Shown: positions 7,450 to 54,358 of the stretch, piece by piece
How the letters are laid out: each line of letters starts with the position of its first letter
Numbering within the stretch: the stretch's first letter is position 1
From: Mytilus trossulus
Lineage: Eukaryota
NCBI RefSeq assembly: GCF_036588685.1
Contig: NC_086381.1
Coordinates: 53,320,001 to 53,384,000 of the forward strand
Length of the DNA: 64,000 nucleotides
Direction: 5' to 3'
Translations under genes and position numbers: made by a program
Notes under the pieces: generated by a model
Seen by the model: only the letters and a program-made list of their open reading frames with translations
Told to the model about the DNA's origin: nothing
The model's database searches: none

Positions 7450-7804
7450 CTGTTGTGCAAAAATTACAATACTATAATTAACTAATTCAAGGAAACTGTT
7501 TGAATAATATGTTGAGTATTTTCATTAATATCATTTCTAACTGTATCATACACCAAATTTGTAGAAAAGCATGTTTGTACTGATGTCAAGAGCTGTTTAT
7601 GTATATTTCACATCAAAGAACTGAATGAGATTTTTTTCAATGGATTTTGTTCTACATGTATAATTATAAAGCAAAACTCCATGAATAAAACCAGTAATAA
7701 ATGGCAACAGGGGAAATTAGACATAAAATTTTTACCACACTTCTGTGGATTCCTTTATTTTAGTATTACAGTGAAACAATTTGTATTATTGAGGAACAAA
7801 TTAC

Positions 7805-8288
7805 CTGAACGAGGCCTTGAATTATTGATTTCAAAATGATCTTCTTCCATGTGCAAGTCTCTATCAAAAGGATTAAATCTACTTTGACTAAAGTTACTGG
7901 GTGATTCCCCTTTATCAGTTTTTATTGTCTTTTCAATACTGTCCTCTTTACTTGCGTCACTGAGACCTCGCTTTTTTAAGTCAATTTCTAACTTCACAAT
8001 ATCATCATCATGTTCAGGAACAAATTTCTCATTAATTTTCTTCAATGTTTCTTCATCTACAGGTCCTATTTCTCTAAAGGAGTAGTCTTGTTCTTCTTCA
8101 GAGGAAATTTCTTCGTCTGAGAGACCAGTAATCACAGTACCAGTAAATTTAATGGAAGCTGTATTATTTTCAATACGGTGAATGACACCTGCGGAACCAG
8201 TGTTATCTATGGTAGTTTCTTTTGATGCTCCAGGTAGGTCTGATAACGTTCTTACTTTGGCCGAAAATTGTTCCCCTGAAACATTCAT
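7805..8288 (-). CDS. DEF8: DEF8 homolog, first recognisable coding exon (acidic low-complexity N-terminus)
   Basis: cag|ATG at 8288, GT donor at 7803-7804; 484 nt, phase 1 matches the next exon. An upstream exon may exist. Confidence 0.75.
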
Positions 8289-9388
8289 CTGTAGACCTAT
8301 AATATGTATTTAATACTTTTTAATATATTTGAAGTAGTTAATTGAAAAATAAATCCATAAGTTTCAACACAGTATAGCAATTGGAATGCTTAAATAAAAT
8401 GTATTTCAATAGAGTATTTTACAATGTTTAATAATCCATTTCCATCTAGACAGTTCAAAAGAGGGTCTTGTAAGGATATATAATAAATTAGAACGATTAT
8501 AGATTATATAAGGCGTCTTGAAAATCATTAAATCAACATCACTCTTTAAATACTGGCTTAAATTGTAACTGAGTTTTCCCCTAATATTTTCAAATAGCAC
8601 AATAAAATATGAAAGTCCTCTAGAATCCAAGCACTACATTTTGAATAATGTTTTAATATAAACTCTTTTCCGATAGCACCTTGATATCAATGATAAACAA
8701 AAGGAGTAATAAGAAAAAGGAGCTTATTCTGTAAAATGTGGTAGTAAGTACAAATGCATATGATAAAGGGACATAATTCATTTCAAAAGTGTACAAATGC
8801 AGGTCCAGAGTTTTGAAAAGGAGGCCTATACTAGTCAACCACTCTCGAAAGGGTGCACTCGATTTAAATCTTAATGGACTACAATTGTCAGTTTTCCTAT
8901 CGAAGGTTGGTGGTTTTCTTTTATAGCATACTAAAACACTTATCCAAATTATCATAAGTATTAAATAAACAATTAACAATACATATAATAGATAAAATAT
9001 AACAGAAATTTGTGTGTATTAATTTTTAGTCAAGAGGCCATCTAGCATGTCTAGTTAACAAATGAGATGACTGACAGTTACATTTTGTTCATAACATGAT
9101 CTAAATATAAACGTAAATATAAATAGATAAGGACCTTCTGCAAATGGATTTTTTCGATTTAACCTGTATAAGAATGATATTTTTGTGGATCGAGTCAGTC
9201 AATCAAATGATTTACATTTGTTTCTCTTTCAATGTTGACTTGCAAGTTAATATATAATTCATCATCAACCTTTCTTAGCTTATTTTTACAAAAATAAACC
9301 ATACTGGCTGCTATGACACTTTCATTAATGATTTAACAAAACAAATACAATTTAAACTTTATTTATCTTTTAGCTTGTGCCCCTTTAA

Positions 9389-11168: not shown

Positions 11169-11561
11169 ACTGATTTTCACTGCACAGAAAGAAGACAATA
11201 TTATTGAGTTTCCTAAGTGTTGCACTCCACTTAAATCAAAAACAATTGTCTATATTGAGCACGATAGTAACGTTCACGTTTGAACTTAAATTTAATTTAT
11301 TTAAATCGATTTTTAGAAACAATATTGACATTTTCTGATCGATTGAATTTCCCGCCTTATTACGCGGGTCATTTGAGTTCACTTTTCAAGTCTTCCGTCC
11401 ATTGCTAGCTCATTTTTATTATTTTATATTTGCAATTCGTATTTAAATGTTATTTAACTAAAAAACTAAACCCTGCCAAGGCCCAAATTTTCTTGGAATC
11501 TTGTAGCCGGCTGTTCCTGATAGTACCACCCCCCCTCTTTTGTCAACAATATCGAATCTAT

Positions 11562-12317
11562 ATGTCCGAGACAAAGCTAACAAAATATCTCAGAACACAT
11601 AACTTTGTGCCTCCAACAGGACAAACAAGACGGCGCCCTGTCATTTTATCTGACAGCAAAGGATTTTCATTACGAAACAATATCATAAGTCCATTTGACC
11701 AAAATATTATATGGTGGTGCAAGCAAGGTGTGACAATTGAGCAAAGTTTTGCCTGGCTCAAAAGAAATCTTCCCACTAAATTATATGAAATTGGAGACAT
11801 TGCTCTATATGTCTGGCTTGGTACATGTAATCTGACAACCAAAGAAAAATCCTCAAAATACATATCTATTACAACTGATAATTCTGATACTGTTGACAAA
11901 GTTATCTCCTGTATTGATGACATCAAGAACTATATACAAGATTTTCCACAAGTCAAACTTATTTTCCTTGAAGTACCAGTATACTCAATAAAAGCTTACA
12001 ATCAACATCAAAAACACTCCGACCCGAAAACTTTCAAGCAACAAGACGAAACACTTGCAAATCAAGTCTGGCAAGTAAATGAGAAAATAAGAGCTACAAA
12101 CCAAATCTTAAATACACGCTCACCTAATTTTTCACTTTTCCTACAAGCCCGCAAACAACACCGTACACGGTCAAGAGTCGAAGCCTGGGAATACTTCAAT
12201 TACAACCTGTACAGGGACGGGATCCATCCTGGCCAGAATCTAGCAAAAGTTTGGTTACGTGAAATAGCAGAAAGAATAAAAATTGATTGCTGGAGCAAAT
12301 CTGAAGTTAAATCCTAA
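11562..12317 (+). CDS. LINE-A ORF0: SGNH/GDSL-type esterase (~251 aa; first ATG at 11562, frame open from 11430)
   Basis: Block I ILSDS, block II KQG, block III WLGTCN, block V DGIHP. Confidence 0.8.
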   Translation: MSETKLTKYLRTHNFVPPTGQTRRRPVILSDSKGFSLRNNIISPFDQNIIWWCKQGVTIEQSFAWLKRNLPTKLYEIGDIALYVWLGTCNLTTKEKSSKYISITTDNSDTVDKVISCIDDIKNYIQDFPQVKLIFLEVPVYSIKAYNQHQKHSDPKTFKQQDETLANQVWQVNEKIRATNQILNTRSPNFSLFLQARKQHRTRSRVEAWEYFNYNLYRDGIHPGQNLAKVWLREIAERIKIDCWSKSEVKS

Positions 12318-12889: not shown

Positions 12890-15394
12890 ATGGGCTCCAG
12901 GGAAATAACAAGGCCTACAAGAACTAGACACCCTCCCATGACATACACACCAAGTGTAACTCGATCACATGGGAATAAGCATATGTCCTACAGGCTAAAT
13001 GCCAAGAAGGCACTAGATAAGAAAATTGATGCAACAGACAGGGATCACTCCTGTGATATGGAATTTAAAGATGGTACACTAGTCATAACATGCAATGCAG
13101 GAGCTTATGAAATCTTGAAATCCTCCATATATAAATATTACGACCAATCTGAAGATAGAACATATAGGCTACACACCAAAACAAGCAAGTCAAGTCTACC
13201 AGATGTCAGCAAACAACCAATGATAGTTGAGGAATCATTATCTGTCAAAAATAGAGATCCATCCTTGTCTAGTCGTCAGCTATTTAGAATAAACATGTTC
13301 AACACCACATGTAGAATCGATGCTAACGGATATATGGTACAAACATTTATTCAAGAAGACCTCGATAAAATATGCGAAGAACTATTGGTCAATAAATCAT
13401 ACTCTGAGCTAAATAACAAAATCAAGCAAATGTGTAAGCTCACTAAAGACCAAATAAATAATCCAAAAAAGGGGCAAGCTAAATCCATCTTATCAGCTAA
13501 GCCCATACTCAACAAAACTGTGCAAACCAATACTTCCACAGGTAACAGTGATAAGGACAAGAAAACGTGTGTTATTAAACAGCATTCTCACCATATAGTT
13601 CAAACACAAGTTGAGCTAAATGATTATAACCAAGATAGTCATAACCATCAACCAAAAACAACACATAGATTAATGACCACCAATGATAAAGATCTATGCG
13701 ACTCTAGCCCTACACGTATAAACAGTCATTATAACTCAATTACTAGTCTAAATGATGAACTTATTGACTCTGAGTTACACACACTTTCTCGTGAAGGCGA
13801 AGAAACAACAGATGAAATCTGCATAGTATGTGGATCTGCTATTATAGATGAAAATAATGTAGAATGTACAATATGTGGACAATGGCTGCATACTGTTTGC
13901 GAAGGAATATCCGAAAACTCGCTCAATAACCATACAGCCTACGTATGCTCGTCATGCAGAATCCTAGACGATACAATTCCATATGACGAATCACTGCATA
14001 ATGAAATGATCCAACAAAGGGATGAAACCCATCCAAAACAGCTAGTATATAAAGCAAAGAGTCAACAGGATACTGACGCTATAAAAATATGCCATACAAC
14101 TGAAGCTGAAGCAGAAAAATCTGATCCATGCCTACCTGTTCTACCAGAATCAGCAGTTAAAGAAGATCTTACCAAAAATAATATACATATTCCACCTATT
14201 GAAGTGAAAACCAAACCAAAGCGAACAAAAAAGAAGGACAATCTAGAACAAACTCATCTTGAATTACAACTGGCTGAAAGTCAAACAAAAATCAGCAATC
14301 TTCAAACAGTCAATCAGGAATATAGACAAACAATTGACTTACTATCATCAAAATTAGGCATACAATCTCCATTAGACAACAACAGCCAACTTCCATTTAA
14401 CCAACAAATCCATCAGCTTGAAGTGAAATTTGAAGGGCAAATTAATAAAATGAAACTGGAGTTTGAGCATCAACTTAACATCATATCCATTCAAATGAAA
14501 CACAATACAGAAATCAATGAGCTGAAATGTAAACTTCATCATATGGAAAATGAATGTAAACAACATAAATCTACCATAAGTGGAAATCAACAACCACCTA
14601 GTCAATCTCCACAGATGAATACTCAATTCACTCCATTTCCAAGATGTCAGAATGGGAACTCAAATCAACAAACTCAACAACCACTAAACCATCCACATAC
14701 ACCTGGGCTACAGTGGACAAGACCTCCAATATGGACTAAACCACCACAATACCAAGCACCTATTGGACAGGATAGACCACAGAATGAGAACTTTCCTCAA
14801 CAGGCACTAAACAATCCACAGATACCTGGTGTACAATATACAAGACCTCCAATGTGGACTAGACCACAACCCTATCAAACACCTATGGGATTGGTATTCG
14901 CCCCATATGCTCCTCATATGCAACAACAAAAAACACACATAAGCTATGATACAAGGCATAAAAATGTTCAACCACCTCGCCAAAGAGTAAATACCGAAAC
15001 GCAAGGACAAAAACGGTCCAGAATGCAAAGAAATCATCAAAAACTGGCGAAAACCACTAACACCAATAGTGAACAAGTTTACAAGCAACAAACTCTCCAT
15101 CAAGTGCAAGAAAATCAGGAGCCAAACCAAAATTCTCATCAAAATCTGGTACAAACTCCAGAATCAAATCAGGCTAACACCCAAATAAGGGATGGACATG
15201 TATATACAGAACATGATATGGACACATCTCATAGTACATGTAAACCAGATATTCCACCGTCTAGAAGTAAATTACATCATAGAAGTATTTCGGAACCAGC
15301 CTTAAATAATGAACAAATAAACTCAAACAAGCCTTTTTTAGGAGCAGGCAGAGCCTCATCAGTAAACTGGACAATAAACCACATGAATTTATAA
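12890..15394 (+). CDS. LINE-A ORF1: conserved N-terminal domain, PHD finger, coiled coil, Q/P/N-rich tail (834 aa)
   Basis: CIVC...CTICGQWLHTVC...CSSC (C4HC3); N-terminal similarity to LINE-B ORF1. Confidence 0.88.
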   Translation: MGSREITRPTRTRHPPMTYTPSVTRSHGNKHMSYRLNAKKALDKKIDATDRDHSCDMEFKDGTLVITCNAGAYEILKSSIYKYYDQSEDRTYRLHTKTSKSSLPDVSKQPMIVEESLSVKNRDPSLSSRQLFRINMFNTTCRIDANGYMVQTFIQEDLDKICEELLVNKSYSELNNKIKQMCKLTKDQINNPKKGQAKSILSAKPILNKTVQTNTSTGNSDKDKKTCVIKQHSHHIVQTQVELNDYNQDSHNHQPKTTHRLMTTNDKDLCDSSPTRINSHYNSITSLNDELIDSELHTLSREGEETTDEICIVCGSAIIDENNVECTICGQWLHTVCEGISENSLNNHTAYVCSSCRILDDTIPYDESLHNEMIQQRDETHPKQLVYKAKSQQDTDAIKICHTTEAEAEKSDPCLPVLPESAVKEDLTKNNIHIPPIEVKTKPKRTKKKDNLEQTHLELQLAESQTKISNLQTVNQEYRQTIDLLSSKLGIQSPLDNNSQLPFNQQIHQLEVKFEGQINKMKLEFEHQLNIISIQMKHNTEINELKCKLHHMENECKQHKSTISGNQQPPSQSPQMNTQFTPFPRCQNGNSNQQTQQPLNHPHTPGLQWTRPPIWTKPPQYQAPIGQDRPQNENFPQQALNNPQIPGVQYTRPPMWTRPQPYQTPMGLVFAPYAPHMQQQKTHISYDTRHKNVQPPRQRVNTETQGQKRSRMQRNHQKLAKTTNTNSEQVYKQQTLHQVQENQEPNQNSHQNLVQTPESNQANTQIRDGHVYTEHDMDTSHSTCKPDIPPSRSKLHHRSISEPALNNEQINSNKPFLGAGRASSVNWTINHMNL

Positions 15395-19100: not shown

Positions 19101-19968
19101 CAAGAAGTGCGTGATTTATACTTTTTAATGATAGCCTAGGCAGGGCACTTATAGTTTTATTAAATAAGCTGTAAATAACATTTTTATCATAATATAGTGG
19201 TGAACGCTATTGCCGCAATAGTTCTGTGTACATTTCTTATCGTGATATAGTATTTGCAACTTGTGCTGTGTACATTTTTATTGTGATACAAGTGGTGAAC
19301 GTTAGCTGCATACATTTTTACCGTGATATCGTGTTGATTCTTATTACCGCAATTGTGATGTGTACATAATATTTTTAACTTATTATCGTCGTAATATTTT
19401 AAGACTTTTAAAATATTTCTTTTAGTCGTACATATTTTAATGTAAATATAAAGATATCCGCAATCTCGGTGTGTAAATTAAATTGCTCATCCGATAAGTG
19501 GAGTGCTCCGATTAAACGGAGGTGAATACCTGTACAGAACAGAACAGAACAGAACTGATGTGCCTGTTTTTTGTTTGGTGGTTGAAGGTGGTGGTTGTGT
19601 AATTTATTGAGAGCCAGTTTTACAGATTTTACAGATTTTTACAGACTTGATAGTGTTTTAATGTGAACTTTTATTTCCTGTATTGCCAATGAGAACCCTG
19701 AATGATGTTTTAGCAAAGTGAAAATACATTTACTGCCATTTCTCGAAAGAAAATGAGATACACGAGACAAAGAAATAGCCGATTCATAGTCGGCATCTTG
19801 GTTTTATGAAGAAATTTTAAAGAAGTTTTTAATTAACAGTCCTTTTACCTTTTAAACATAGAACACTTTTAATATATAGTGAACAGTTTTAAGAAAGACA
19901 ATTGTTTTATTTAAACATTTTTTCCAAATCACTGTTTTTGAGTAGATACAACCAACAGTAAATTCAAA

Positions 19969-22050
19969 ATGTCGAGAAGGTCAAGTAGAGAATTAGTTCC
20001 AACTAAAATATATACACCCAGCAAGAGTATTCAAACTACTAAGAATTATGTATTAAATGAGAAAAGAACTTTGAATAAAATTAAGGAAGCTGCAAATAGA
20101 GACATTGATATTCAAGCAACTTTGAAAAGGGGGAATTTAATCATACAGTTTTCATCGGCTGCATTTTTGCAATTCAATACATGCTTCGACCAGTATTTTA
20201 GCTCAAACCAAAGTTTAAAACTAACAGTACATGAAAGGTTCGATTTATCAAAGAAATTATCTGAGAGGTCAATTTCATTTGCTGACGTTAGTAATCCGTC
20301 AAAGCAACTATATAGGGTGAACATTTTTAATACAACATGTCGTATTGAAGTGAATGGGAAACAATTTATGTCATTCATAGATGAATTTTCTAAAATTGCA
20401 TCGCATATGAGTAATGATGTAGACTATAAACATCTCAACACCAAAATTAAAGAGCAATGTGATTTTTTATTATCGTCAATTAATAACGGTCATAATCCGT
20501 CAGTTGTAGTGGATAATACAAAGATTAGTCAATCTAAAGCTGTTACAAATGCTGCCGCTGGTAGTAATGACATTAAGGACCCTAAAGTATGCCCTAAATG
20601 TACTAGAAATTGCTTATCTAGAAGTGTCTGGTGTAATAGGGGTGAACATTGGATACACTATAATTGCGAAAAACTAAAAAGTGAAATGATTAACATTTTA
20701 GAGAATAATTCTGATACAAACCATTATATATGTTCAATTTGTGATATAGACTCCATAGATGATAAGCAAGTATTATCTGTGAATTCTCCCACTCATACTC
20801 AAGTATGTGATAGTATCAACTTACCTTTGGTCAACATGATTAATGAAGAATCTTTTTTAGAAGGAAATGGAATAGAATCCGATACTTCAGTAGAACATAT
20901 AGATAAAGATCAAGTAATACCCAAAGTAACTTTTGCTCAATCTCTTTTATTGGAGGAATTTCCAAGGTCTTGTGCCTTATGTTTAGAGTTGTTAAATACT
21001 GATGAACAAATTTGTGAATTCTGTGATCAATCTTATCACATAAAATGTATGGGAAAAGAAAATAAAATATGTCTAGGATGTGAAGCAACACATAGTCAAA
21101 ATTCTGAAAATTTGCATTTGAATATTGAAACTTCAGTAAAGAAGGTTAATTCACCTCGTCCAACTTTAGTCTGTGTAGACAAAAACATTACTGATAAATC
21201 TAAAGAAAATCAAGATAAGGATAATGAAAATAGTGTGTTGAAACAGAAAGAATTGCGTCAATTAGAACTAAAATTAAAGAAAAAAGAAGAAAGTCTGAAA
21301 TTAAAAGAGTTGTCAGTGAATGAAAAACTTAAAGAGAAAACCAAGCTTCTTGATTATCTTCACCAAATTGAAGCCCGAAATTTAGAGTTAGAACAAACCA
21401 TAAAAACAATGAATAGGAAAATTATTATATTGGAAGAAAATCAAAATAACTCTTCCCTGCGTAATGAAAAATCAGAATCTGGAAATTTAAATAGTCATAG
21501 GGATAATAGTGAAGATTTACTGGTACAAGTAAGGAATAAAGTCACAAAATTTATTGTGGACAAGATTGAAAATGAATTGGATAAATTATCTGACAATATT
21601 ACTGAAAGCAATGATAAATTAAAGGATACACAAAATCATGTTTATCAACAAAATGTGAAAGATAACTCAGAAAATCAATATTCTCAACATAATTGGGATT
21701 ACCAAAATTATTATCATCAATATCCATATTATTATGATCATCACAACTCATATTATATAAATAATTATGGAACTGTAAATGAGAGTCATAGTGATTCAGA
21801 AAGTAGATGTGATTATGAAAATCAATGGTTTCAAGATACGTCTCCGGACAATACTCAAACTGTTACTCATTCGAATCTTATTGATGTATTAGCGTCAGAC
21901 AACCAAGTAAGGACAAATTGTGATTCACAAAGTAATCAACCTAGGGACTATTTGGGACAAAATTTATATTTCCAAAGTAATAACATTGCCAAAACTTTAC
22001 ATGGAAATAATTTTTTATGGAAAACAAGCCTCAGTGTCCAACCGACATAA
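19969..22050 (+). CDS. LINE-B ORF1: N-terminal domain, two PHD-like fingers, coiled coil, Y/H/N/Q-rich tail (693 aa)
   Basis: CPKC...HWIHYNC...CSIC and CALC...CEFCDQSYHIKC...CLGC. Confidence 0.88.
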   Translation: MSRRSSRELVPTKIYTPSKSIQTTKNYVLNEKRTLNKIKEAANRDIDIQATLKRGNLIIQFSSAAFLQFNTCFDQYFSSNQSLKLTVHERFDLSKKLSERSISFADVSNPSKQLYRVNIFNTTCRIEVNGKQFMSFIDEFSKIASHMSNDVDYKHLNTKIKEQCDFLLSSINNGHNPSVVVDNTKISQSKAVTNAAAGSNDIKDPKVCPKCTRNCLSRSVWCNRGEHWIHYNCEKLKSEMINILENNSDTNHYICSICDIDSIDDKQVLSVNSPTHTQVCDSINLPLVNMINEESFLEGNGIESDTSVEHIDKDQVIPKVTFAQSLLLEEFPRSCALCLELLNTDEQICEFCDQSYHIKCMGKENKICLGCEATHSQNSENLHLNIETSVKKVNSPRPTLVCVDKNITDKSKENQDKDNENSVLKQKELRQLELKLKKKEESLKLKELSVNEKLKEKTKLLDYLHQIEARNLELEQTIKTMNRKIIILEENQNNSSLRNEKSESGNLNSHRDNSEDLLVQVRNKVTKFIVDKIENELDKLSDNITESNDKLKDTQNHVYQQNVKDNSENQYSQHNWDYQNYYHQYPYYYDHHNSYYINNYGTVNESHSDSESRCDYENQWFQDTSPDNTQTVTHSNLIDVLASDNQVRTNCDSQSNQPRDYLGQNLYFQSNNIAKTLHGNNFLWKTSLSVQPT

Positions 22051-25000
22051 TGGAACAATTAAATCATGAAAGTAGAGAGGATGATAAAAAGAAAGAACTT
22101 AATATTTTAACTTTTAATTGTAAAAATATACAAACATGCGGTATGTTTTTTGATGAACTTTTTAAATCAACAGATATATTTTTAATTCAAGAACATTGGC
22201 TGTTTAATTTTCAACTGAATTTACTTAATGAACTTCATCAAAATATTTGTGGAATTGGAAAAGCGGTCGATGATAAAGATCCAATAAATCCAACCAATTT
22301 ACCTCGTGGTTATGGGGGAACAGGAATTTTATGGAGAAAAGACCTTGACAATTTTATTAATCCGTTAGATATTGGAAACGATAGAATTTGCTGTGTTGAA
22401 CTTTTAGGATCTTCAAAGCTACTCCTAGTATCTGTTTATTTACCATGTAAAGGAACACCATCTGATTCATTAGAATTTTATAACTGTATAGACCAACTAC
22501 ATGAAATCGTTCAAAGTTATAGCGACTCTCACTCTATTATAATTGGTGGCGATTTTAACGAAAATATTTTAAGTAAAATAGATACGAGAAGAAACAAATA
22601 TTTAGTAGACTTTTTGAATGAAAATAGTTTATATACTGAAGAAAATGGTATTACTTTTGTAAATTGTAGTGGTAAAGGAACTTCAACTATTGACTTTTTA
22701 CTTTTTAAACAAGATTTTAAAGAGAATGTGATCAGTATGGAAACAATGGACAATGTAGCTACTAACGTGTCTGATCATTTTCCTGTTAAAGCAAAATTGA
22801 AATATATCATCAATGCTAAAGAAAAACTGAAATGTTCAAATTCAAATATTCTACCCTCTGGAAAAACTCCATGGAAAAAAATAGATAAAGACGCATATAA
22901 AACTTTAGTTGAAAATGGATTAGATAATTTTTCATCATCTTTAGAAAATAAATATGAAGTGGATATTGCTTTTCAAAATATGAACAGTTTGCTCTTCAAT
23001 TCAGCAAAAAGTTGTTGTCCAACTCCTCGAAAAAGATATAGAAAACCAAAATTAAAAGTAATGAATGAAGATATTTCTGGCGCAATTGCAATGAAAAAAA
23101 AGGCTTTTTATCAATGGAAGATTAATGGGCGGTCGGAAGATCCAAGGAATGAACTTTATATTCAGAAAAAAGAGACAACTTATAATTTACGTAAACACTG
23201 TCGCAAGGCAGTTGCGATGAATAGAATCGATGAAAGAGAAAAAATAATGGAAGCAAATATCAAAAACAAAAATTCATTTTATAGACTTATTAAAAAACAG
23301 AGGGGAAGATTAAGTAATCATATAGATGAACTATCTGCAGGAGACACAGTGTATAGTACAGAAAACAACATTTTAAGTGGATGGAAACATCATTTTGAAA
23401 ATTTAACAAAAAATTCTATTCATGAACATTTTGATAACAAATATCAACAAAAGATCGAACAAGAATATATTGATATAATTGACATTTGTAGAGCTATGTT
23501 TCAGCACCAAAGTATTACTGAAAATGAAATAGTAGAAGCTTTGAAGTTATTAAATTTAAATAAATCACCAGATATATTTGGAGTTTCAACTGAAAACTTA
23601 TTATATGGAGGACAATCTCTTATTTATCACCTTAAAGAACTCTTGGATAGTACTTTTAGACTTTGTTATATACCAGACGAACAGAAATTAGGGATAGTAA
23701 TTCCGCTCTTTAAGAATAAAGGAAGTTGTAAAGACAGTAAAAATTATCGTGGAATAACAATTACTCCAACATTATCCAAACTCATTGAGGCTGTTTTAAA
23801 GATCAGAATTAATCCTGACATTATAAAATATCAAAATCCATTACAACGTGGCTTTACCAAAAGAACAGCACCATTAAACTGCTCTTTTATTATAGAAGAA
23901 TATCACAAGGAATGTATCGAGTTAAATGATCAAATAATAATAACTATGCTTGATGCAAAATCTGCATTCGATGCTGTTAAACATGCTGGGCTTATCAGAA
24001 GATTATATCAAATGAAAATTCCGGAACAATCAATTTTAATTATTGATAATCTATATAAAAATGCTGTTTCTTGTGTTAAATGGAATAATCAAATATCGGA
24101 CACTTTTAGAATAGAACAAGGCGTAAGACAAGGAGGGACTCTTAGTGCAGACTTGTACAAAATCTATATAAATACACTTTTAGACATTTTAGCTGATTCA
24201 GGATATGGAGGCAAAATTGGATCTATTTCTTGTTGTGCTCCTACTTGCGCAGATGATTTAGCCATTCTTAGTAACTGTCCGTATGAAACGCAAATTTTAA
24301 TTGATATGGCCTTTGATTTTAGTAAACGTGAGGCATACTTACTACAACCAGCAAAAAGTTGTGTTATACAGTCTAAATCACGTCACCATGAGAAAGTAAA
24401 TGAAAATTTTTGGAATTTAGGCAATTCTGTTCTTCCAACTTCTAATAAAGCAACACATATAGGAATATGTCGTACAGACGATGATTCATGTAAAGCAACA
24501 ATAGATGAGAATTTAAAGAAAGCAAGAAGGACACTATATAGTTTAATGGGGGTTGGACTTTATGGCGAAAATGGACTAGATCCACAAACTTCAATGTCAA
24601 TAATGAATACTTGTATTATACCGATAATGTTTTATGGATTGGAAATAGTAATCCCTAGAGGAAGATGTTTAGAAACTTTAAATATCCAATTTAAGAAGTT
24701 CTTGAAACAATTGTTATCTTTACCAAAAACAGTAGCAGATCCTGCTATATATATGATTTCTGGGATGTTACCTGTAGAAGCTCAAATAGATGTAAAAATT
24801 CTAACTTTTTATGGAAATATTACTAGACAAGGAAAAAATTCTATTGAATGGCAACTAGCGGAAAGGCAATTAAATGTTAAATCTATTAATAGTAATAGTT
24901 GGTTTAGTTTACTGAGGAAAATATTTTTGAAATATGAACTTAATGATCCTGCACAATACTTAGTTAATCCAATTAGTAAATACCAATGGAAAAGGGAAAT

Positions 25001-25568: not shown

Positions 25569-25830
25569 CATTTTATGAATCCTAAGTGTCAATTGGTTGT
25601 CTACTCTTAAACAGTGATATCTTTAGATAAATATTTTTAGATTTTAAAATATTTAATGATTTGATGATATTGACATTAAGTCCAATTTTATCGTCAAGAA
25701 TATGATGAACAATGTAAATAGTGTATAGTGATATTGGTGGAAGATATTTTTATTCATGATGTGAAAAACCAATACTCGGAAGAGGTGTGCCTACATTGGC
25801 AGAATATATATTACAGATTACAGATTACAA

Positions 25831-26066: not shown

Positions 26067-26762
26067 AGATAAAAAGACCAAAATTTTAACTTTGACCACT
26101 GAACCATGAAAATGAGATCAAGGTCAGATGATATCTGCCTGCTAGACATGTACACTTTACAATCATTCAATACAACAAATATAGTAAACATATTGCATAA
26201 AGTATGAGAAAAACAGACCAAAACACAAAAACTTAACTATAACCACTGAACCATGAAAATGAGGTCAAGGTCAGATGGCACCTGCCCGTATGACATGTAC
26301 CCCTTACAATCCTTCCATACACGGAATATACTAGACCTATTGCATATAGTATCTGAGATATGGACTTAACCACCAAAACTTAACCTTGTTCACTGATCCA
26401 TGGAATGAGGCCGAGGTCAAGTGAAAACTGTCTGACGGGCATTATAGGACCTTGCAAGGTACGCACAAACCAAGCATAGTTATTCTATTACAAGTCTTAT
26501 AGTAAGAGAGAATTCAACATAACAAAAAATCTGAACTTTTTTTCAAGTGATTACTGAACCATGAAAATGAGGTCAAGGACAATGGACATGTGACTGATGG
26601 AAATTTCGTAACATGAAGCATCTATATACAAAATATGAAGCATCTAGGTATTCCACCTTCTAAAATATATAGCTTTTAAGAAGTGAGCTAACACCGCCGC
26701 CGCCGCCAGATCACTATCACTGTGTCGAGCTTTCTGCAACAAAAGTTGCAGGCTCGACAAAA
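26067..26762 (-). mobile_element. HINE-like element fragment with internal tandem subrepeats
   Basis: Terminus TGCAACAAAAGTTGCAGGCTCGACAAA with (CCG)n, similar in design to the 421-1085 element. Confidence 0.5.
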
Positions 26763-28868: not shown

Positions 28869-30105
28869 TCATTTTATACTGCTGATCTTTTTAAAATATT
28901 TTATTTGCCTTATACGATCTAATATCAAAGCTTTTTTGTGGCATTTTCCTGCTTCAGTCATATCACCTATCATATAGCACCCAATACCTAATAGAGTATA
29001 ACACTCTGCTTTCATGACGTTATTTCCTATATAGTTATTGCTTTCAATGCATGTTTTCATTTCATTTAAAGACGCTAAACATTTTTGCATCTCTTCTAAC
29101 TTAAGTAAACACACAAAACGTAAAAATAATGTATAAACAATAGGGGGTTTCTGGATATATCCCTTGTGTTCTACTTCAGGTCTCATTTCGTCAGGAATTA
29201 AAAACGAGTTACGGGAAAAATCGCTCGGCTCCATTGTATAAGCTATATATATTGAGTTTAAATCGGTATCTTGAGTTTGATTCGCTAAATTGTCGATGGT
29301 AAATTTATCTTCACTGTAATACAGTTTCTCTTGTTGATCGTCCTGAAACTTCGATAACACGTAGTCAGCGATTGCAACAGAAACTGAATATTTTCTAATG
29401 CAATAATAGTAAGAAGCTAAGACATTCCACCCGGATACTCCATCACTACGTACTCCCATTAATACAAAGGGTAACATCTCTTTTAAACGTTGATAATGAA
29501 GTTTATTACCCCCGCGCGTGACATTCTGATAAGTAAAACGAGTACCAATGTTTCGACACAACGTACTGAATAAACACTTGAAAATAAATCGGTCGTGATT
29601 TCGTTTGAGCAGGTCAAAACTATTAACCAACACTTGCCAAGGCATAAGTTTGTTTGTAAGGACGGCTTGGCCGCATATAAGCAAAAATCTCACTTCATTA
29701 AGCTTTGAGAGATTTGCAGAACATTTGGAATGGCCAATCACATCCGCTTCTGTAAATATAGGTGACATGTTTTGTGATATGATTTCATATTGAGGAGAAC
29801 AGAAAAAATCAGACATGAAACTTGAAAAAGCAAGACATGCAGAGTAATTTTTATACAACTCAACTATTGTTGTTTTCAAATTCCTCCATTCTGGTAAAGT
29901 GATTCTTTGTTCAAGCACATTCCTTTCTTTTATAAAATAATGCGGCAAGATATGATGTTGAACATAGTATTCAAGTCGCTTGAGTCATTCCGAAAAACAG
30001 TTCTCAAAATTGTGCGGTGTGTATTCTGTAACAGCAACTTCTTCTGAAATCCAGAACACAACTGTTTAAAAAAAATACGAACAAAGAAGTTCTTTTAGAT
30101 TGAAT
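28869..30105 (-). pseudogene. 5'-truncated Mab-21/cGAS-like paralog (C-terminal half only)
   Basis: Highly similar to 37880-39110; in-frame stops at 29985-29987 and 30066-30068; catalytic N-terminus absent. Confidence 0.88.
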
Positions 30106-35139: not shown

Positions 35140-37130
35140 AGGTATAAATAAATTGCTTCGCTGAGCGCAGGTGGATACGACCGCAGATGTCCAACCCTGG
35201 AAAATTTGGTATAATATGGACACAATATTCACGCTTGTAACTGAAATTGACACATACTTTGATTAAATAACTGCAGTCAATGAACTTTAGAATGGTTATA
35301 TCATTTTTTTTTTACTTTTGTGCAATACCCTATGCTGTTGCGAATTGACCCCCCACTACTCCTCCCCAACCACCCCCCCCCCCCCCCAAAACAATAATTT
35401 TAGCCAGTTTTTTGTTGATGTGCAATACAATATGCTGTTGAATATTAAACCCCAAGAAGAAGACATTTCTTTTAATTTCTGAAATCTGAAATGAGAAATG
35501 AGGAAATACCCTCAAGATATAGTCAGTTTTTCAATTCAAATTTCTAATGGAGTTTGTAACTATAATTACCCATTTAAGAACATCATTTAAAAGTTTTAAA
35601 ATATAAAATAACATACATAATCATGGTTAAAATTAAATTCCTTTTTTTGCCCTTAATTACGAAATGGTTTGAGACATAACCACCCCCACCCCAAGTCAAT
35701 CATTACCATCCCTTTGTAGTATGGAACCTTGTGGTATAGTTTCAGAAAAATTCATGCACTTTAACACAGGTTATTGTCTGGAAACTAACAAATGTTTAAT
35801 TGGGCCCCATTTTTGGCCCCTAATACTTAAACAATTGGGACCATAACCCCCAAAATCAATCCCAACCTTCCTTAAGTGGTTATAAAATTTGTGTTGATAT
35901 TTTATTGATTTCCATCTTCTTATACTAAAGTTATCATCCCGGGAAACCATCTGTCTTCAGACGACGCTGACGACGACGACGACGATAACGTGATACGATA
36001 TTGAATATATGACAAAACAATATTTATCTTATAGTTAACAGTTTAAAGATCATTTAAAAAATAGTATTACTTGGCATTTTCAGGAATTGCTTGCATTAAC
36101 TAAGTGAATCAGTGAATTAAACGTAATTCCTAAATTTAAGTAATTACCTGGAAGTCGTCAATACACATATTTACTGTAACATATACACTAAAAGAGATAT
36201 TGAATCTAATCAGAAAACAATAAGACCTCTCTTTAGATCTTTAGTTAATAGAACAGACATCTGATGATTAACTTTTCACAATATGTTCTATTACAGAATG
36301 TAGACGCTTGCCCAGTCGACACAAAACTCGTCCTTTTTTTAGTTCATGCTATTCCTACAGGTTTTTGTTTTGTTTTATATAAATATGTATTACCTTGATT
36401 TTTCTCTTCTGGAAATCAGAGAAACCAACGTCGATTAAATACTATCTAAAATTATCTACCTTTGTGTGAAGCTCTATTGATTGTATTTTAAGACTCAATC
36501 AATTAACAAAAAAGTGAAAATCATGATATATCACAGTTCATTATACCCTTTATGCAGTATAAGTATTGTAATTAAAAGAGTTGATTTTGAATTTTGCCTA
36601 TAGTACAATTGAAATTCAAACATAAAAAAAAGTTTGTTCTTATATTACATGTAAAAATGTATAATGTTACACCAATCTTACAGTAAGGGGAGGGTTTGCA
36701 CATTAAAACTTGTTAACCCCATCCATAAGTGTTATGTGCCTGTAGTTCAGTGGTTTTCGTTGGTTCATTTTGTCATGTTTGTTTTTTGTAAATTGTTTTG
36801 TTATAAATAAGGCCCTTAGTTTTCTCATTTGAAACATAACGAGTTTATATATTCTACTTTTACATTAGTCACAAATTTATACAGTGATAAAATTGTTAAT
36901 CTCTATTTAAAACAAGATGTGGTTTGATTGCCAATGATAAAAATGTTCATATGAATTTTAGTGGATGTAAGCATTTATAGGGCTTCAACAATTAGAAATA
37001 TCCACACTGTTTAGTAGGCTATAAAAGGTCCCACTATGAATAAAGTATGAAACATTAAGTCTCTAATGGTAAATAATGTCACCTTACTGTTTTTCTTTTC
37101 TTTTTCAGTTCAAAAATCCTGACCGAAAGT

Positions 37131-39176
37131 ATGGAAAAACGCTCATTACGATTATATAATTTTCTAAGTGACAAACTTGGAACCGAAGATATAGTGAAAA
37201 CAAGACGAAGTTATTATATAACACACAATTATTTGACCAAAAGTAAAACACACACACCGTTTTTCTGTGGAAGTAGAGCAGAAGATCTTGATATGAAGGG
37301 CAGTGACACGGACACAGTTATTTTACTTAATGATATACATATTGTTGAAGATGTCACCAATACTTACGATTCTAATACATTTGTCATGAAGACTTGTGAT
37401 ACCAGACCTGGTTTTACACAGTTAGAGTTGTGCAGTAGTTACGAATATACAGATGTGTGGTGTAAGAAAATCGGACATAAATTCTATCTTTCAAGCAGTA
37501 AAATGAAGCAGATATTAGTTTCTTTGAACGAAAATAATGAAATATGTACACTTAACACTCTACATGGACCATGTGTTTCTACAGCCAACGAAACACATGA
37601 CTGCACTGCAGGTGTAAAGTGCCAATCATTCATTAAACAAGCACAGGAATGGGTAGGAAGAAAACGTTGTTGGCCAACGGAAGCATTAAAAAGGATAATT
37701 ATTGATAGTGGGGTATGGTTTGTCCCAATAGGCTACAAGTTGTCGCCAAATGAAGATATAGAATGGCGAGTCGCGTTTGGTATCGCTGAAAAACTGCTTG
37801 TCTATTCTTTTAGTCATACTCAGCTTTTGGTTTATGCTCTTTTGAAAATAATTTTAAAAGACGTGATTGAACAAAATCTTAAACTAAAAGATCTTCTATG
37901 TTCGTATTTTTTAAAAACAGTTGTTTTCTGGATTTCAGAAGAAATTGCTGTTACAGTATGGACACCGCACAATTTTGAGAAATGTTTTTCGGAATGCCTT
38001 AAGCGACTTGGATACTATGTTAAACATGATATCTTGCCGCATTATTTTATAAAAGAAAGGAATGTGCTTGAACAAAGAATCAATTTAGCAGAATGGATGA
38101 ATTTGAAAACAACAATAGTTGAGTTGCATAAATATTTCCCTGCATGTCTTGCTTCTTCAAGTTACATGTCTGAATTTTCCCGTTCTCTGCAATATGAAAT
38201 TGTATCACAAAACATGTCACCTAGATTAAGTGAAACGGATGTGGTTGGACATTCCAACTGTTCTGCAAATCTCGCCAAGCTTAATGAAGTCAGATTTTTG
38301 CTTCTATGTGGTCAAGCCGTTCTTACAAATAAACTTATGCCTTGGCAAGTGTTGGTTAATAGTTTTGGGCTGCTCAAACGAAATCACGACCGATTTATTT
38401 TCAAGTGTTTATTCAGTACGTTGTGTCGTAATATTGGTACTCGTTTTACCTATGAGAATGTCACACGCGGGGGTAATAAACTACATTATCAACGTTTAAA
38501 AGAGATGTTACCCTTTGTATTAATGGGAGTACGTAGTGATGGAGTATCCGGGTGGAATGTCTTAGCTTCTTACTTTTATTGCATTAGAAAATATTCAGTT
38601 TGTGTAACAATCACTGACTACGTGTTATCGAAGTTTCAGGACGATCAACAAGAGAAACTGTATTACAGTGAAGATAAGTTCACCATCGACAATTTAGGGA
38701 ATGAAAGTCAAGATACCAATTTAAACTCAATATACATAGCTAATACAATGGAGCCGAACGATTTTTCTCGTAACTCGTTTTTAATTCCTGATGAAATGAG
38801 ACCTGAAGTAGAACACAAGGGATATATCCAGAAACCTCCGATTGTTTATACATTATTTTTACGTTTTATGTGTTTACTTAAGTTAAAGCAGACACACAAA
38901 TGTTCAGAGTCTTTAAATGATCTCAAAATATACATTGAAAGCAATAACTATATTGGAAATCACGTCATGAAAGCAGAGTGTTACACACTACTTGGTATTG
39001 CTTTCTATCTGAAAGGTGACCTGACAGAAGCAGGAAATTGTCACAAAAAAGCTTTGGCATTAGATTATTTAAAGCAAATTAAATATTTAAAAATGATCCA
39101 CAAAATACAAAAACAATATGAAGAAATGAAAACAAATCATTGTACTGTTCAAGAAGAAACAGTTCAAATTTCGTAG
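37131..39176 (+). CDS. Mab-21/cGAS-like receptor (cGLR) nucleotidyltransferase with C-terminal helical/TPR-like region (681 aa, single coding exon)
   Basis: GSRAEDL...GSDTD motif, HGPC, EWRVAF..AEK.L, CSYFLKTVVFW, LPHYFI; splice acceptor at 37107-37108 just upstream of the ATG. Confidence 0.9.
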   Translation: MEKRSLRLYNFLSDKLGTEDIVKTRRSYYITHNYLTKSKTHTPFFCGSRAEDLDMKGSDTDTVILLNDIHIVEDVTNTYDSNTFVMKTCDTRPGFTQLELCSSYEYTDVWCKKIGHKFYLSSSKMKQILVSLNENNEICTLNTLHGPCVSTANETHDCTAGVKCQSFIKQAQEWVGRKRCWPTEALKRIIIDSGVWFVPIGYKLSPNEDIEWRVAFGIAEKLLVYSFSHTQLLVYALLKIILKDVIEQNLKLKDLLCSYFLKTVVFWISEEIAVTVWTPHNFEKCFSECLKRLGYYVKHDILPHYFIKERNVLEQRINLAEWMNLKTTIVELHKYFPACLASSSYMSEFSRSLQYEIVSQNMSPRLSETDVVGHSNCSANLAKLNEVRFLLLCGQAVLTNKLMPWQVLVNSFGLLKRNHDRFIFKCLFSTLCRNIGTRFTYENVTRGGNKLHYQRLKEMLPFVLMGVRSDGVSGWNVLASYFYCIRKYSVCVTITDYVLSKFQDDQQEKLYYSEDKFTIDNLGNESQDTNLNSIYIANTMEPNDFSRNSFLIPDEMRPEVEHKGYIQKPPIVYTLFLRFMCLLKLKQTHKCSESLNDLKIYIESNNYIGNHVMKAECYTLLGIAFYLKGDLTEAGNCHKKALALDYLKQIKYLKMIHKIQKQYEEMKTNHCTVQEETVQIS

Positions 39177-44527: not shown

Positions 44528-45190
44528 CTATACTTCAAGACCATCTTGTATTATTTGTGAAGTTGATACGGAATATTTATCAACAAGTTCTGGGTATCTT
44601 CCGATGAACTTTTTAAGAAAAAGGACGAGACGTTCTTTGACATACCCCTAGTTCATCAACTTTCTGCTCAGACACTGGTGACGTTGTACAAAGTCTGAAT
44701 AGGAGCTGCAAGCTCTTAAATACCTAATAAGTTGGGAAATGTATATTCCATATGCAGGTGAAGTTGGTATATTACTACTAAGGTGGGGGAAATTGATAAT
44801 TTCAAAATTGAAATCGTCTCGTTTATCATAGATTCTGGTACTGAGATGACGGTGTATGTCAAATTCGAGGTATAAGTCTAAAAATGAGGCGGAGGAAGCC
44901 GTGTCTGTGGTCTCTTTAATTTCTAGTTCTTGTGGGTATATTAATGGAACCCAATCAGAAACGTTCGGATTGTTAATGGAAAGAACATCATCAATATATC
45001 TGAAAGTGAAATTAAATAACCTGGCTTCTTTGATCTTTTTGTTTTTAACAAGTGTCTGAAGGAACTCCGATACATATGAAAATAAGAAGAGATCGGTAAG
45101 GAGAGGCGCACAATTCGTTCCCATAGGAATGCCGACAATTTGTTGAAAAAGTCTACCTCCAAATTCAACAAATATATTGTCAATAATCAT
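44528..45190 (-). pseudogene. Penelope-like reverse transcriptase C-terminal fragment
   Basis: GIPMGTNCAP, RYIDD, FLDL, YDKRDDF, SQLIRY; one premature TAG at 44648-44650, frame continues to TAG at 44528; no C-terminal GIY-YIG. Confidence 0.85.
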
Positions 45191-46643
45191 TCCAGATTTC
45201 TAATCAAGTGGTTTGAATTTTAACATTTTAATATATGTGTGTATTACTAGTATTCTTTATAATGGCAAAAGGTTAATCTTACATTTACGGAAGGAGTACA
45301 GATATTCCTGTGTTCGTCTAAAAATATTCTGTCTCGTTTGTCCTGTCACAGGAAAGTGGGAGTGAAAACGCTTTCTTACTCACTGTCGACCTCACTAGCA
45401 TCATTTTGTACATAACTTACTTCGTTATTTTTCTCTTCTGATCTGTTTTATATTTGTAATTTCATGGCGTTTCATCAGTGACGATGCGGTATGGGCTTTG
45501 CTCATTTTTGAAGGCCGTACAGAGACCCATGTTTAATTTCTGTTTCATTTGGTCTCTTGTGGAGAGTTGTCTCATTGGCAATCATTCCAGATTTTAATCT
45601 TAGTATTTATTATACCTTTCACGTTTAGTTGTCCTCTTTAAACTATTTAAAACGAAACAATTAAAATAAAAACAAGCAAGAGGAGAAATATTGTGAGTGT
45701 ATATGCCAATTATTATTACTTTCTAATTTACTTTCAAAATGTTTCCAAATTTTGCTGGGTTGTCCCTTGTGGACGGTTTTTAGTGGTTTGAATTTTAACA
45801 TTTTAATATGTATGTGTATTATTCTTAAAAATAGTTTAAGGTTAATCTTTCATTTTCGGAAGGGGTACAGATGTTCCGGTGTTCGTCTAAAATATAAACA
45901 AGATAAGAAACATACTAATTTTTTGTGTGTGATAACTAGGGTTTATAGTTTTCATACACTAAAAAAAATCTAGTCTGCCCTTCCCCGAAATATTTTTCTT
46001 GAATTACATAATGGAAGGGCAGACACGAAAATTACTGAGCTAATAGATTGATATCTTTTCGTCCGTGGTATTTTTTTCAAAAAAATCGGAGGTTATGCAT
46101 TTTTGTCATCCAACATGAAAGATACCCATGTCGTCGACTTGATATCTAATTGTTCTGCTCAACTATGTACTAGATAAATTGAAAACTTATGCAAATGGTG
46201 TTTTTAAAATAAAACTTTTCGTAATTGAGAAGAAAATTGCAATTTTCTTTGTTTCTATTAACTTATAAAGTTTTTGTCACTGATGAGTCATTTGTAGAGA
46301 TAACGCGCGTCTGGCGTACATACAAAATTTAGTCTTAGTATCTATGATGAGTTTATTTAACAGACCAAGTCTCTTGAATTCATACTGCTAAATTCATTAA
46401 AAATGTGTTTTCACTTCGTGATTATACATCCGCGGCAAATCATGGAAATAGAGAACTCCAATAGTAATGGAAAGCAGATAAAAAAGAATGAACAAAAAAA
46501 CGTAAAATTAACTGCTATTTAGCTTAATGCAAATTCGCTTTTATTTTTATCCCCCTCATTAATAGAGTCACTGAATTCAAAACGTTGGTTGAAAGTATTT
46601 GTTTGAGTACATTTACAGATGAGCATATAACTCATTCCATGTA

Positions 46644-52273: not shown

Positions 52274-54358
52274 TTAATCACATAAGGACTTCAGATATTC
52301 TTCAAAAATAATCAAAGGATCTTGAATAGATGTTTGACAATAATTGTTCATGGCTTTCGTTCCCATTTCATATTGTCTACGTATTTTTTGTAGCTTTTTC
52401 ACATAGCTAAATTGCCTTGAATAATCTGATACTAAAGCTTTTTTGTGGTAATTTTCTGCTTCCACCAAATCACCAATAAGATGGTATGCAATACCAAGAA
52501 GGGTGTAACATTCTGCTTTCATAACATGAGTACCAATATAGTTATTGGTTTCAATTAATGTTTTTAGATCACTTAATGACTGTGAACATTTTTGAGTCTG
52601 CTCTAACTTTAGTAAACACATAAAACGTATAAAAAATGTGTACACAATCGGAGGTTTCTGAATATATCTCTTGTATTCTACTTCTGGTTTCATTTCATCA
52701 GGAATTAAAAACGAGCCACGATAAAAATCGTTCGGCTCCATTGAATTAGCTATGTGTATATCGCTCAAGTCAATAGTATGACATCCCCTTGGTAAATAGT
52801 CGACGGTAAACTTATCCTCACTGTAATACAGTTTCTCTTGTTTCGCTTCCTTTATCTTGTATAATACGTAGTCAGTGATTTTAAGTGAAACTGAATATCT
52901 ACCTATGCAATAATAGAATGTAGCTAAAACGTTCCAGCCTGATACGGCATCGCTTCGTACTCCTAGGATAACAAATGGTAATATCTCTTTCAGTTTTTGA
53001 TAATGTAGTTTATTACCACCACCAGTCACATCGTCAGAGGTAAAACGGGTACCAACGCCGCGACATATCGTACTGAATAAACTCTTGAATATAAACCGGT
53101 CGGGTTTTTGTTTGAGTAGCTCAAAACTATTAACCAATACCTGCATGGGCGTAAGTATGTATGTCAGGATAGCCTGACCATCTAAAAGCATAATTCTTAC
53201 TTCATTAAGACTGGAAATATTGGCGGAACATTTGGCACAGTCAACCATGTCAGTTTCACGTAATGCAGGCAAAATGTTTTGGGATACACTTACATATAGA
53301 GGCACAAGGAAGAAGACAGACATAAAACTTGACGAAGCAAAACATGCAGGGTATTTTTTATACAACCGAACTATTGTTGTTTTCAAATTCATCCACTCAG
53401 GTAAAGTGATTCTATGTTCAAGCATATTCCTTTCTGTTATGAAATAATGCGGCAAGATATCATATTTAACATAGTATTCCAGTCGTTTAAGGCATTCTAG
53501 AAAGCAATTCATAAAGTTATGCGGTGCCCATTCTGTGACCCCAATTTCTTCTGAAATCCAGAAAACAACGGTCTTTAAAAAATAAGAACATAGAAGCTCT
53601 TTGAATTGGCAATTGTTTTCAATTAAGTCTTTCAATGTTATTTTTAAAAGAGCATAAACCATAAGTTGGGTATGGGTAAAAGAAAACACAAGAAGTACTT
53701 CAGCGACCGTAAATGCGGCTCGCCATTCTATATCTTCATTTGGCGACAGCTTGTAGCCTATTGGGACAAACCAGACCCCACTATCAATAATTATCTTTTT
53801 TATTACTTCTGTTGGCCAATGTCGTTTTCTTCCTATCCATTCCTGTGCTTGTTTAATGAATGATTTGCACTTTATCCCCACAGTAAAGTCTTGTGTTTCA
53901 TTACTTGTAGACATACACGGCCCATGTAGATTAGTAATGTTACATGCACTATAATCTTTGTTAACATAAAGTAACTCCTGCATCATTGTACTACTAGAAA
54001 GAAAGAATTTATGTTTGATTTTCTTTAACCAAGCATCTGAATATGTGAAACTACTACACAGCTCTAACTGTGCAAAGCCTGGTCTGGTATCAGAAGACCT
54101 CATTACAAATGTGTTAGAACCATCTTTATTGTTAGGTTGTTCAACAATGTGCATATCTTTAATCAAGACAATTGTATCTGTGTCACTGCCTTTCATGCGA
54201 AGACCTTCTCCTTTACTTCCACAAATGAACGGTGCGTGTGTTTTCGTTTTGCTCAAATAATTGTGTGTTATATAATACGTTCGTCTTGTTCTCACTGTAT
54301 CGTCGGATCCAAGCTTGTCACTTAGGAAATTATATAATCGCAATGAAAGGTTTTCCAT
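52274..54358 (-). CDS. Mab-21/cGAS-like receptor (cGLR) paralog (694 aa from ATG 54358)
   Basis: GSKGEGL...GSDTD; colinear with the 37131 protein; splice acceptor at 54376-54377 places the start at MENLSL. Confidence 0.9.
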   Translation of the reverse strand: MENLSLRLYNFLSDKLGSDDTVRTRRTYYITHNYLSKTKTHAPFICGSKGEGLRMKGSDTDTIVLIKDMHIVEQPNNKDGSNTFVMRSSDTRPGFAQLELCSSFTYSDAWLKKIKHKFFLSSSTMMQELLYVNKDYSACNITNLHGPCMSTSNETQDFTVGIKCKSFIKQAQEWIGRKRHWPTEVIKKIIIDSGVWFVPIGYKLSPNEDIEWRAAFTVAEVLLVFSFTHTQLMVYALLKITLKDLIENNCQFKELLCSYFLKTVVFWISEEIGVTEWAPHNFMNCFLECLKRLEYYVKYDILPHYFITERNMLEHRITLPEWMNLKTTIVRLYKKYPACFASSSFMSVFFLVPLYVSVSQNILPALRETDMVDCAKCSANISSLNEVRIMLLDGQAILTYILTPMQVLVNSFELLKQKPDRFIFKSLFSTICRGVGTRFTSDDVTGGGNKLHYQKLKEILPFVILGVRSDAVSGWNVLATFYYCIGRYSVSLKITDYVLYKIKEAKQEKLYYSEDKFTVDYLPRGCHTIDLSDIHIANSMEPNDFYRGSFLIPDEMKPEVEYKRYIQKPPIVYTFFIRFMCLLKLEQTQKCSQSLSDLKTLIETNNYIGTHVMKAECYTLLGIAYHLIGDLVEAENYHKKALVSDYSRQFSYVKKLQKIRRQYEMGTKAMNNYCQTSIQDPLIIFEEYLKSLCD

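Follow-up and report, generated by a model that had tools for sequence, protein, structure and literature searches.

Expression of gag-pol in human immunodeficiency virus 1 (HIV-1) relies on −1 frameshifting at the heptamer U UUU UUA. In Moloney murine leukemia virus (MoMLV), the same junction is crossed by readthrough of a UAG codon (PMC13517186). The translation of the second open reading frame (ORF2) of long interspersed nuclear elements (LINEs) has been described as an open question (PMC3894237); the LINEs studied in this respect, SART1 and L1, make a separate ORF2 protein (ORF2p) by reinitiation. A −1 frameshift is needed for ORF2 of the Dictyostelium elements TRE5-A and TRE3-A, according to a figure legend in a review (PMC5911963), and a −1 frameshift is also stated to be needed in HeT-A gag (PMC5009743). 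Here, we describe two LINEs, LINE-A and LINE-B, found in a 64,000-nucleotide (nt) stretch of the genome of the mussel Mytilus trossulus (RefSeq assembly GCF_036588685.1, contig NC_086381.1, forward-strand positions 53,320,001 to 53,384,000; referred to below as the window). Judging from their ORF1-ORF2 junctions and those of their relatives, ORF2 of these elements is very probably reached by recoding, with a −1 frameshift producing a Gag-Pol-like ORF1-ORF2 fusion.

The ORF1-ORF2 junctions in the window

The ORFs and junction features of the two elements are as follows.

19969..22050 (+), LINE-B ORF1: 693 amino acids (aa) from the first Met (stop-to-stop frame 19942-22050), with an N-terminal alpha/beta domain, PHD-like Cys/His finger(s), a coiled coil, and a disordered tail, ending in ...N-F-L plus 10 aa
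22011..25568 (+), LINE-B ORF2: APE endonuclease, reverse transcriptase (RT; motif TCADD), and C-terminal zinc finger (weak match)
22008..22010 (+), TAA that closes the ORF2 (−1) frame directly 5' of the LINE-B heptamer
22011..22017 (+), LINE-B slippery heptamer U UUU UUA in the ORF1 register, predicted −1 frameshift site
22017..22019 (+), ORF2-frame ATG formed by the end of the heptamer and the following TG, with U at −3
22018..22047 (+), LINE-B spacer from heptamer to ORF1 stop, 30 nt or 10 codons, conserved in length and not in sequence
22027..22033 (+), LINE-B AGCCTCA, with the core GCCTC (22028-22032) at +11
22048..22052 (+), LINE-B ORF1 stop TAA overlapping an ORF2-frame ATG (TAATG)
12890..15394 (+), LINE-A ORF1: PHD finger, ending in ...P-F-L plus 17 aa
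15313..18816 (+), LINE-A ORF2: APE-RT
15334..15340 (+), LINE-A slippery heptamer U UUU UUA, in the same register as in LINE-B, 17 codons from the stop
15352..15358 (+), LINE-A AGCCTCA, with GCCTC at +13

Across the LINE-B junction, the ORF1 frame reads AAT TTT TTA TGG ... ACA TAA. ORF2 occupies the −1 frame, which is open from 22011, and the heptamer, of the X XXY YYZ form, sits within the ORF1/ORF2(−1) overlap; the predicted junction protein is ...NNFL / MENKPQ.... A preliminary description of this locus had given these coordinates, the register shared with LINE-A, the opening of ORF2 at 22011, the two ATGs, and the TAATG overlap, all of which were reproduced from the sequence. Both ATGs (22017 and 22050) are in the LINE-B ORF2 frame upstream of the endonuclease; the first in-frame ATG of LINE-A ORF2, at 15655, lies past the first endonuclease motifs and well within that domain. 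AGCCTCA follows the heptamer after 9 nt in LINE-B and 11 nt in LINE-A, in different codon registers.

The LINE-B junction is not an assembly slip: contigs from all four of four sequencing runs cover both junctions, one of these contigs (X10 record 14) shows 0 differences over 21653-22429, and none of the indels listed falls within either junction. In a diverged relative (X10 record 15), the alignment ends at 21921 and restarts at 22014, inside the heptamer. The window sequence by itself does not settle the matter, because the body of LINE-B ORF1 holds two further in-register TTTTTTA copies (20463 and 20853); the heptamer rises far above chance only across relatives.

Conservation of the slippery heptamer

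Relatives were collected in a DNA survey that was seeded on ORF2 motifs only. It covered 80 metagenome stretches, out of 175 confirmed, and a further 26 loci that came from genome bins of symbionts and are presumably host DNA. Together with the two window elements, these 106 loci were reduced to 91 by excluding 17 (13 lacked an intact start of the endonuclease, 2 began at a contig edge, and 2 had a short domain); a U-tract is still visible in four excluded loci checked by eye. Seven loci that form a separate contrast group (YADD or FADD wherever the motif is visible, a lack of the heptamer, and an AUG at most 60 nt from the endonuclease) were set aside, and the other 84 were grouped into 70 lineages at <70% endonuclease identity. 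The branching order was taken from a quick tree with a midpoint root. No relatives were found in viral contigs. The bins that contributed loci L081-L106 are titled Sedimenticola or “Ca. Thiodiazotropha” and carry many intact animal-type LINEs, probably as host contamination.

An in-register −1 heptamer was identified in 55 of the 70 lineages (UUUUUUA in 44, UUUUUUG in 8, and AAAAAAC in 3), the remainder being 8 lineages with an in-frame stop and 7 others that are decayed, truncated, or atypical. Within 150 nt 5' of the endonuclease, the heptamers are distributed 56:0:1 across the three registers, against a background rate in ORF1 bodies of 4 per 24,903 codons. Dereplication at 50% identity leaves 42 lineages, 31 with frameshift and 7 with readthrough junctions and 4 others. 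The U-run is exactly 6 in 51 of the 52 U-heptamer lineages; F is always encoded by UUU, L always by UUR, and the codon before F has U in third position throughout. A conserved −1 frameshift signal in this clade is thus strongly supported by sequence comparison, and so is the earlier suggestion that frameshifting is conserved; the heptamer is far more frequent at these junctions than chance would give.

The same signal is seen from the protein side. A profile of 12 ORF1s was compared with 50%-identity representatives, and the best 150 of 2066 matches comprised 142 new proteins, 59 of them of at least 500 aa. Among these 59, F-L occurs within the last 32 residues in 40, with exactly 10 residues left in 31, although the profile covered the C-terminus, some proteins are truncated where their contig stops, the 40 probably include a few that are not slip sites, and no fewer than 6 are the same elements as loci of the DNA survey. 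Elsewhere in the surveyed ORF1 proteins, F-L is found 30 times per 40,236 residues. Lys, Glu, Gln, Met, or Trp precedes F in 12 of these 30 and in none of the 40 terminal cases, as a need for U in the third position of that codon (NNU) would predict.

Of the seven other lineages, L005 and L007 have decayed U-tracts, L034 has a truncated AAAAAAC, and L010 (~2860-2900) has a noncanonical U CCU UUU that retains the 10-codon distance from the stop. The atypical ones are L028 (2340-2700), in which a candidate C CCU UUU lies 351 nt upstream, L030, and L094. The ORF2 frame is open for at least 457 codons upstream in L094 (1-1373) and at least 94 in L030 (1-283); these are possible single-ORF fusions, with no ORF1 homology demonstrable in the open upstream frames.

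A related branch with in-frame stop codons

In eight lineages (L051, L052, L061, L064, L069, L072, L074, and L080), ORF1 and ORF2 are in the same frame across a single stop codon, located 18 to 72 nt 5' of the endonuclease and always preceded by AAA or GAA; seven of the eight lack an AUG. Upstream of this stop, L080 shows clear homology to ORF1 and L074 weak homology; the other six loci are truncated. The stop contexts include UAG-CAA-UUA in L069, an exact type I readthrough nonamer, its UAA variant UAA-CAA-UUA in L052, and two type III hexamers in L074 and L061 (UAGGGC and UAGGAU), as listed in PMC13517186; the other four are UAG-GA-N, which is not among the listed types. The eight lineages form one branch (support of 91 in the Shimodaira-Hasegawa-like approximate likelihood ratio test) that joins the AAAAAAC group (94), and both fall, together with LINE-A, in a larger set with a support of 95. 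Because the clade has apparently switched between two recoding mechanisms, this distribution suggests that what selection keeps is the fusion itself and not a particular signal.

In the proposed scheme, LINE-A and LINE-B ORF2 would be expressed through translational recoding and not through initiation. The majority of ribosomes would yield ORF1 protein (ORF1p) and terminate, and a minority would slip by −1 through tandem tRNA slippage on U UUU UUA or its variants U UUU UUG and A AAA AAC, giving a fusion of ~1866 aa in LINE-B and ~1975 aa in LINE-A; one sub-branch would reach the same fusion by stop-codon readthrough. Such elements would resemble retroviral gag-pol in the heptamer itself, in the interchangeability of frameshift and readthrough, and in the fusion of a structural protein to an enzyme at a low ratio. 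They differ in being non-LTR (long terminal repeat) APE-RT elements with no protease found, in lacking a detected stem-loop or pseudoknot, and in having a 0-frame stop fixed 10 codons downstream. TRE5-A and TRE3-A, from a distant host and clade, are likewise APE-type LINEs, said to need a −1 frameshift for ORF2. The fusion, if real, would keep the enzyme attached to the particle formed by ORF1p, at a fixed ratio, as in retroviruses, unlike the separate ORF2p of SART1 and L1.

Spacing between the heptamer and the ORF1 stop codon

Exactly 10 codons separate the heptamer from the ORF1 stop in 25 of the 55 frameshift lineages, LINE-B included, with all three heptamers represented; among the 28 lineages whose stop lies upstream of the endonuclease start, 21 have this spacing. 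Spacings shorter than 10 codons are absent (0 of 55 versus 29 expected from the background stop density). The 25 ten-codon lineages, one of which (L011) has T7 in its DNA, vary in the distance from heptamer to endonuclease (30 to 120 nt), in endonuclease identity (23-69%), and in the spacer sequence (median identity 33%). The base after the stop is C in 17 of the 25, compared with 69 of 418 in the background. A stop codon followed by C terminates poorly. Neither this spacing nor the readthrough sister group was part of the preliminary description.

Ten codons is the ribosome-collision gap reported in yeast, and in Escherichia coli reporters the ribosome behind a stop-paused one slips by −1 more often, with an optimum at 8-10 codons and a peak at 9 (Smith 2019, PMC6815119). 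By analogy, in the 10-codon elements the following ribosome could be held on the slip site by one that has paused at the stop of ORF1; whether this stimulates the slip in LINE-B and the other 10-codon elements appears to us evenly balanced. The E. coli constructs share with these LINEs a slippery heptad 5' of a slow stop, a sharp spacer optimum, and no RNA structure, but they are engineered and bacterial, whereas in the LINEs the stimulation would be a natural one, conserved in eukaryotes and acting over a gap of 10 codons. In SARS-CoV-2, where the 0-frame stop is placed also affects −1 efficiency; there, it is 5 codons away, within the pseudoknot, and is proposed to aid refolding (PMC8168617). 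The 10-codon rule amounts to a sharp prediction for collision-stimulated frameshifting in eukaryotes, of which the only demonstrations found are in engineered bacterial reporters. The full combination, namely, a natural and long-conserved eukaryotic −1 frameshift that is stimulated by a terminating ribosome one ribosome-length ahead and not by RNA structure, that couples ORF2 to ribosome load, and that alternates with readthrough in a clade making an uncleaved Gag-Pol-like ORF1-ORF2 protein, could well be true, though we would put its chances slightly below even.

Other candidate stimulators

The frameshift could be real and have a different stimulator: a GCCUC-binding protein (perhaps ORF1p or one from the host), the nascent peptide of ORF1, or a pseudoknot that escaped detection, with the 10-codon spacing reflecting a protein or structural constraint. 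This alternative, which concerns the stimulator only, is a serious contender that we nevertheless do not favor. It draws on the GCCTC core, which has its first base at +11 to +13 in 18 of the 55 lineages (mean of 0.21 and maximum of 2 in shuffles) and occurs in both 10-codon and longer-spaced elements. The AGCCTCA shared by LINE-A and LINE-B had been pointed out in the preliminary description; only its core proved to be positionally conserved, the full 7-mer being present in 4 of 55. Because GCCTC is found in all three codon registers, GCCUC is probably an RNA-level motif; that it acts near the mRNA entry channel as an auxiliary stimulator or a protein-binding site is a tentative suggestion, which we are inclined to doubt. 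A G-x-P-[LIV]-x-[YF]-like peptide, located 13 to 23 residues before F-L in 10 of the 55 lineages (~21955-21972 in the window), might exert an effect from within the exit tunnel or serve as a binding motif. There is also a weak downstream duplex signal (mean z of −0.52, standard error of 0.28). Such stimulators leave unaccounted for the absence of spacings below 10, the sharp peak at 10 over three heptamers, and the enrichment of C after the stop, and GCCTC is missing from 37 of the 55 lineages.

Searches for RNA structure gave little. No folding excess was detected downstream of the heptamer (mean minimum free energy z of ~0 in four windows; n = 55), single folds of the window junctions are only weak, and no convincing pairing partner of the +8 to +19 segment was seen within ~300 nt on either side. 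The 25 ungapped junctions revealed no consensus structure or covariation (alifold empty, helix scores not above column-permuted controls), in analyses that did not explicitly model pseudoknots.

Alternatives to recoding

The preliminary description had proposed two routes to LINE-B ORF2, the second through UAAUG as in SART1. Termination-reinitiation at this UAAUG, or at the AUG at 22017, would give free ORF2p; both AUGs are suitably placed, in frame and upstream of the endonuclease, and such coupling has been described for SART1 in reviews. As in SART1 and L1, the RNA is bicistronic and ORF2 would depend on ORF1 translation. However, an in-frame AUG before the endonuclease is present in only 14 of the 55 frameshift lineages and absent from 41, and the stop-start overlap occurs in 2 (LINE-B and L066), where ~2 TAATG or TGATG would be expected by chance, given that 34 of the 55 ORF1 stops end in A. 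SART1-type coupling is therefore not a conserved route. The AUG at 22017 exists as described and results incidentally from the UGG that comes after UUA. In windows up to +90, the LINE-B folds are weak, with z of ~0, and no strong downstream structure like the one reported to matter for SART1 was seen. LINE-B happens to carry UAAUG, and we regard its use as a second route as unlikely; where SART1 and L1 make separate ORF2p, the unconserved AUG and the recoding signals of this clade imply a fusion.

AUG-independent reinitiation by post-termination ribosomes, as reported for L1, where the ORF2 AUG is said to be replaceable by other sense codons, would make the U-tract a restart mark ~30 nt before the stop, in line with the fixed distance between the two. 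It would not account for the X XXY YYZ geometry in three variants or for the strict register, and the in-frame readthrough branch can yield only a fusion; this alternative is very improbable.

Several observations weigh against recoding or against the ribosome queue. The lineages share ancestry, and binomial P values for the counts overstate their independence. No protease able to release ORF2p from a fusion is among the domain matches of the window ORFs, and long natural ORF1-ORF2 fusion proteins are represented by one chimeric gene model among 6938 candidates, which is weak evidence. The lack of a detected structural stimulator is unusual for efficient eukaryotic −1 frameshifting. The queue is not universal, as 30 of the 55 lineages, LINE-A included, have 11 to 47 codons to the stop; in most of these, the stop is at or past the first strand of the endonuclease and looks incidental, and no stimulator was identified for them. 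The LINE-B stop is UAA-U and not the common stop-C, and, according to section headings in PMC6815119, frameshifting at the pseudoknot of IS3 falls when ribosome load is high. Finally, 34 of the 52 U-heptamers read UUUUUUAG (next base G).

That last sequence could serve as a 3' splice acceptor, with ORF2 translated from a spliced mRNA, and gene predictors do link ORF1 and ORF2 by an intron (P0027 and P0019). Yet 18 of the 52, including LINE-B, lack the AG, the register and spacing are kept in the AAAAAAC lineages, and the U-run is fixed at 6; among the joints listed, none falls at the AG of either heptamer in one possibly RNA-derived run (contigs whose RNA status was guessed, a weak point). Splicing is accordingly a highly improbable source of ORF2, and it appears that gene predictors mis-start ORF2 or invent introns at these junctions. 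The least probable alternatives, both close to negligible, are transcriptional slippage adding a U to U6, for which T7 or T8 in the DNA of a few copies (L011, L053, L056, and L036) could be cited but which requires no register, against the 56:0:1 found, and F-L as a mere conserved C-terminal motif of ORF1p, against the fixed codon usage around it and the geometry kept by the KN (AAAAAAC) lineages.

Classification of the two LINEs

Both elements have the APE-type non-LTR layout (ORF1, APE-RT ORF2, and a simple-repeat 3' tail), in a comparison that did not explicitly search for LTRs. The 3' ends are as follows.

25810..25829 (+), LINE-B 3' tail (ATTACAG)n
19506..19555 (+), LINE-A 3' end, with a 5-bp hairpin (19506-19521) and an (ACAGA)n tail

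LINE-B seems to start straight after the LINE-A tail (19506-19600), with read depth unbroken across both. Their endonucleases are only 32% identical. Named homologs of the LINE proteins in the window are mostly from Mytilus. The predicted structure of LINE-B ORF1p (mean predicted local distance difference test score of 57) had no PDB match at E ≤ 0.001, with weak PHD matches only.

By eye, the LINE-B RT is the same as M.edulis_75_LINE in the RT alignment of Martelossi 2023 (PMC10294476), an entry labeled RTE superfamily, Proto2, in Table S7; the LINE-A-like entries M.edulis_315/319 also carry the Proto2 label, and discordances between Proto2 and RTE-X are mentioned in that paper. By the published label of its matching RT, LINE-B is a putative bivalve Proto2-clade LINE. 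The RT motif is CADD in the LINE-A/LINE-B group, YADD in the named Proto2 references examined, and YADD or FADD in the RTEX references examined; the two elements are members of a CADD-motif group of putative bivalve Proto2 LINEs. RTE-X was considered as the clade and rejected, given the YADD/FADD of its references and the Proto2 label of the matching entry. The main text of PMC10294476 does not mention frameshifting, and the window motifs had no match in ~0.35 MB each of its multi-MB supplement files 24 and 25. No paper on recoding in Proto2 or RTE-X LINEs was found in the literature searched, which did not extend to Repbase reports.

Other features of the window

Upstream of LINE-A ORF1 lies a 302-aa frame (11409-12317, +) with SDSKG ... 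DGIHP motifs and no Pfam or PDB match, which we take to be esterase-like from its SGNH pattern. Its homologs were found in 9 loci, upstream of ORF1 or of ORF2, and LINEs with such an upstream frame may be tricistronic. A motif of ~21-26 nt occurs four times between this frame and LINE-A ORF1 (12353, 12533, 12701, and 12789) and twice in the LINE-A 3' untranslated region (18986 and 19065).

Elsewhere, the window contains open frames without Pfam matches at 28869-29984 (−), 7755-8309 (−), and 44648-45199 (−), as well as two genes for Mab-21/cGAS-like receptors with TPR repeats, at 37077-39176 (+) and 52274-54493 (−). Downstream of LINE-B, a 147-bp tandem repeat is present in 2.4 copies (26072-26419).

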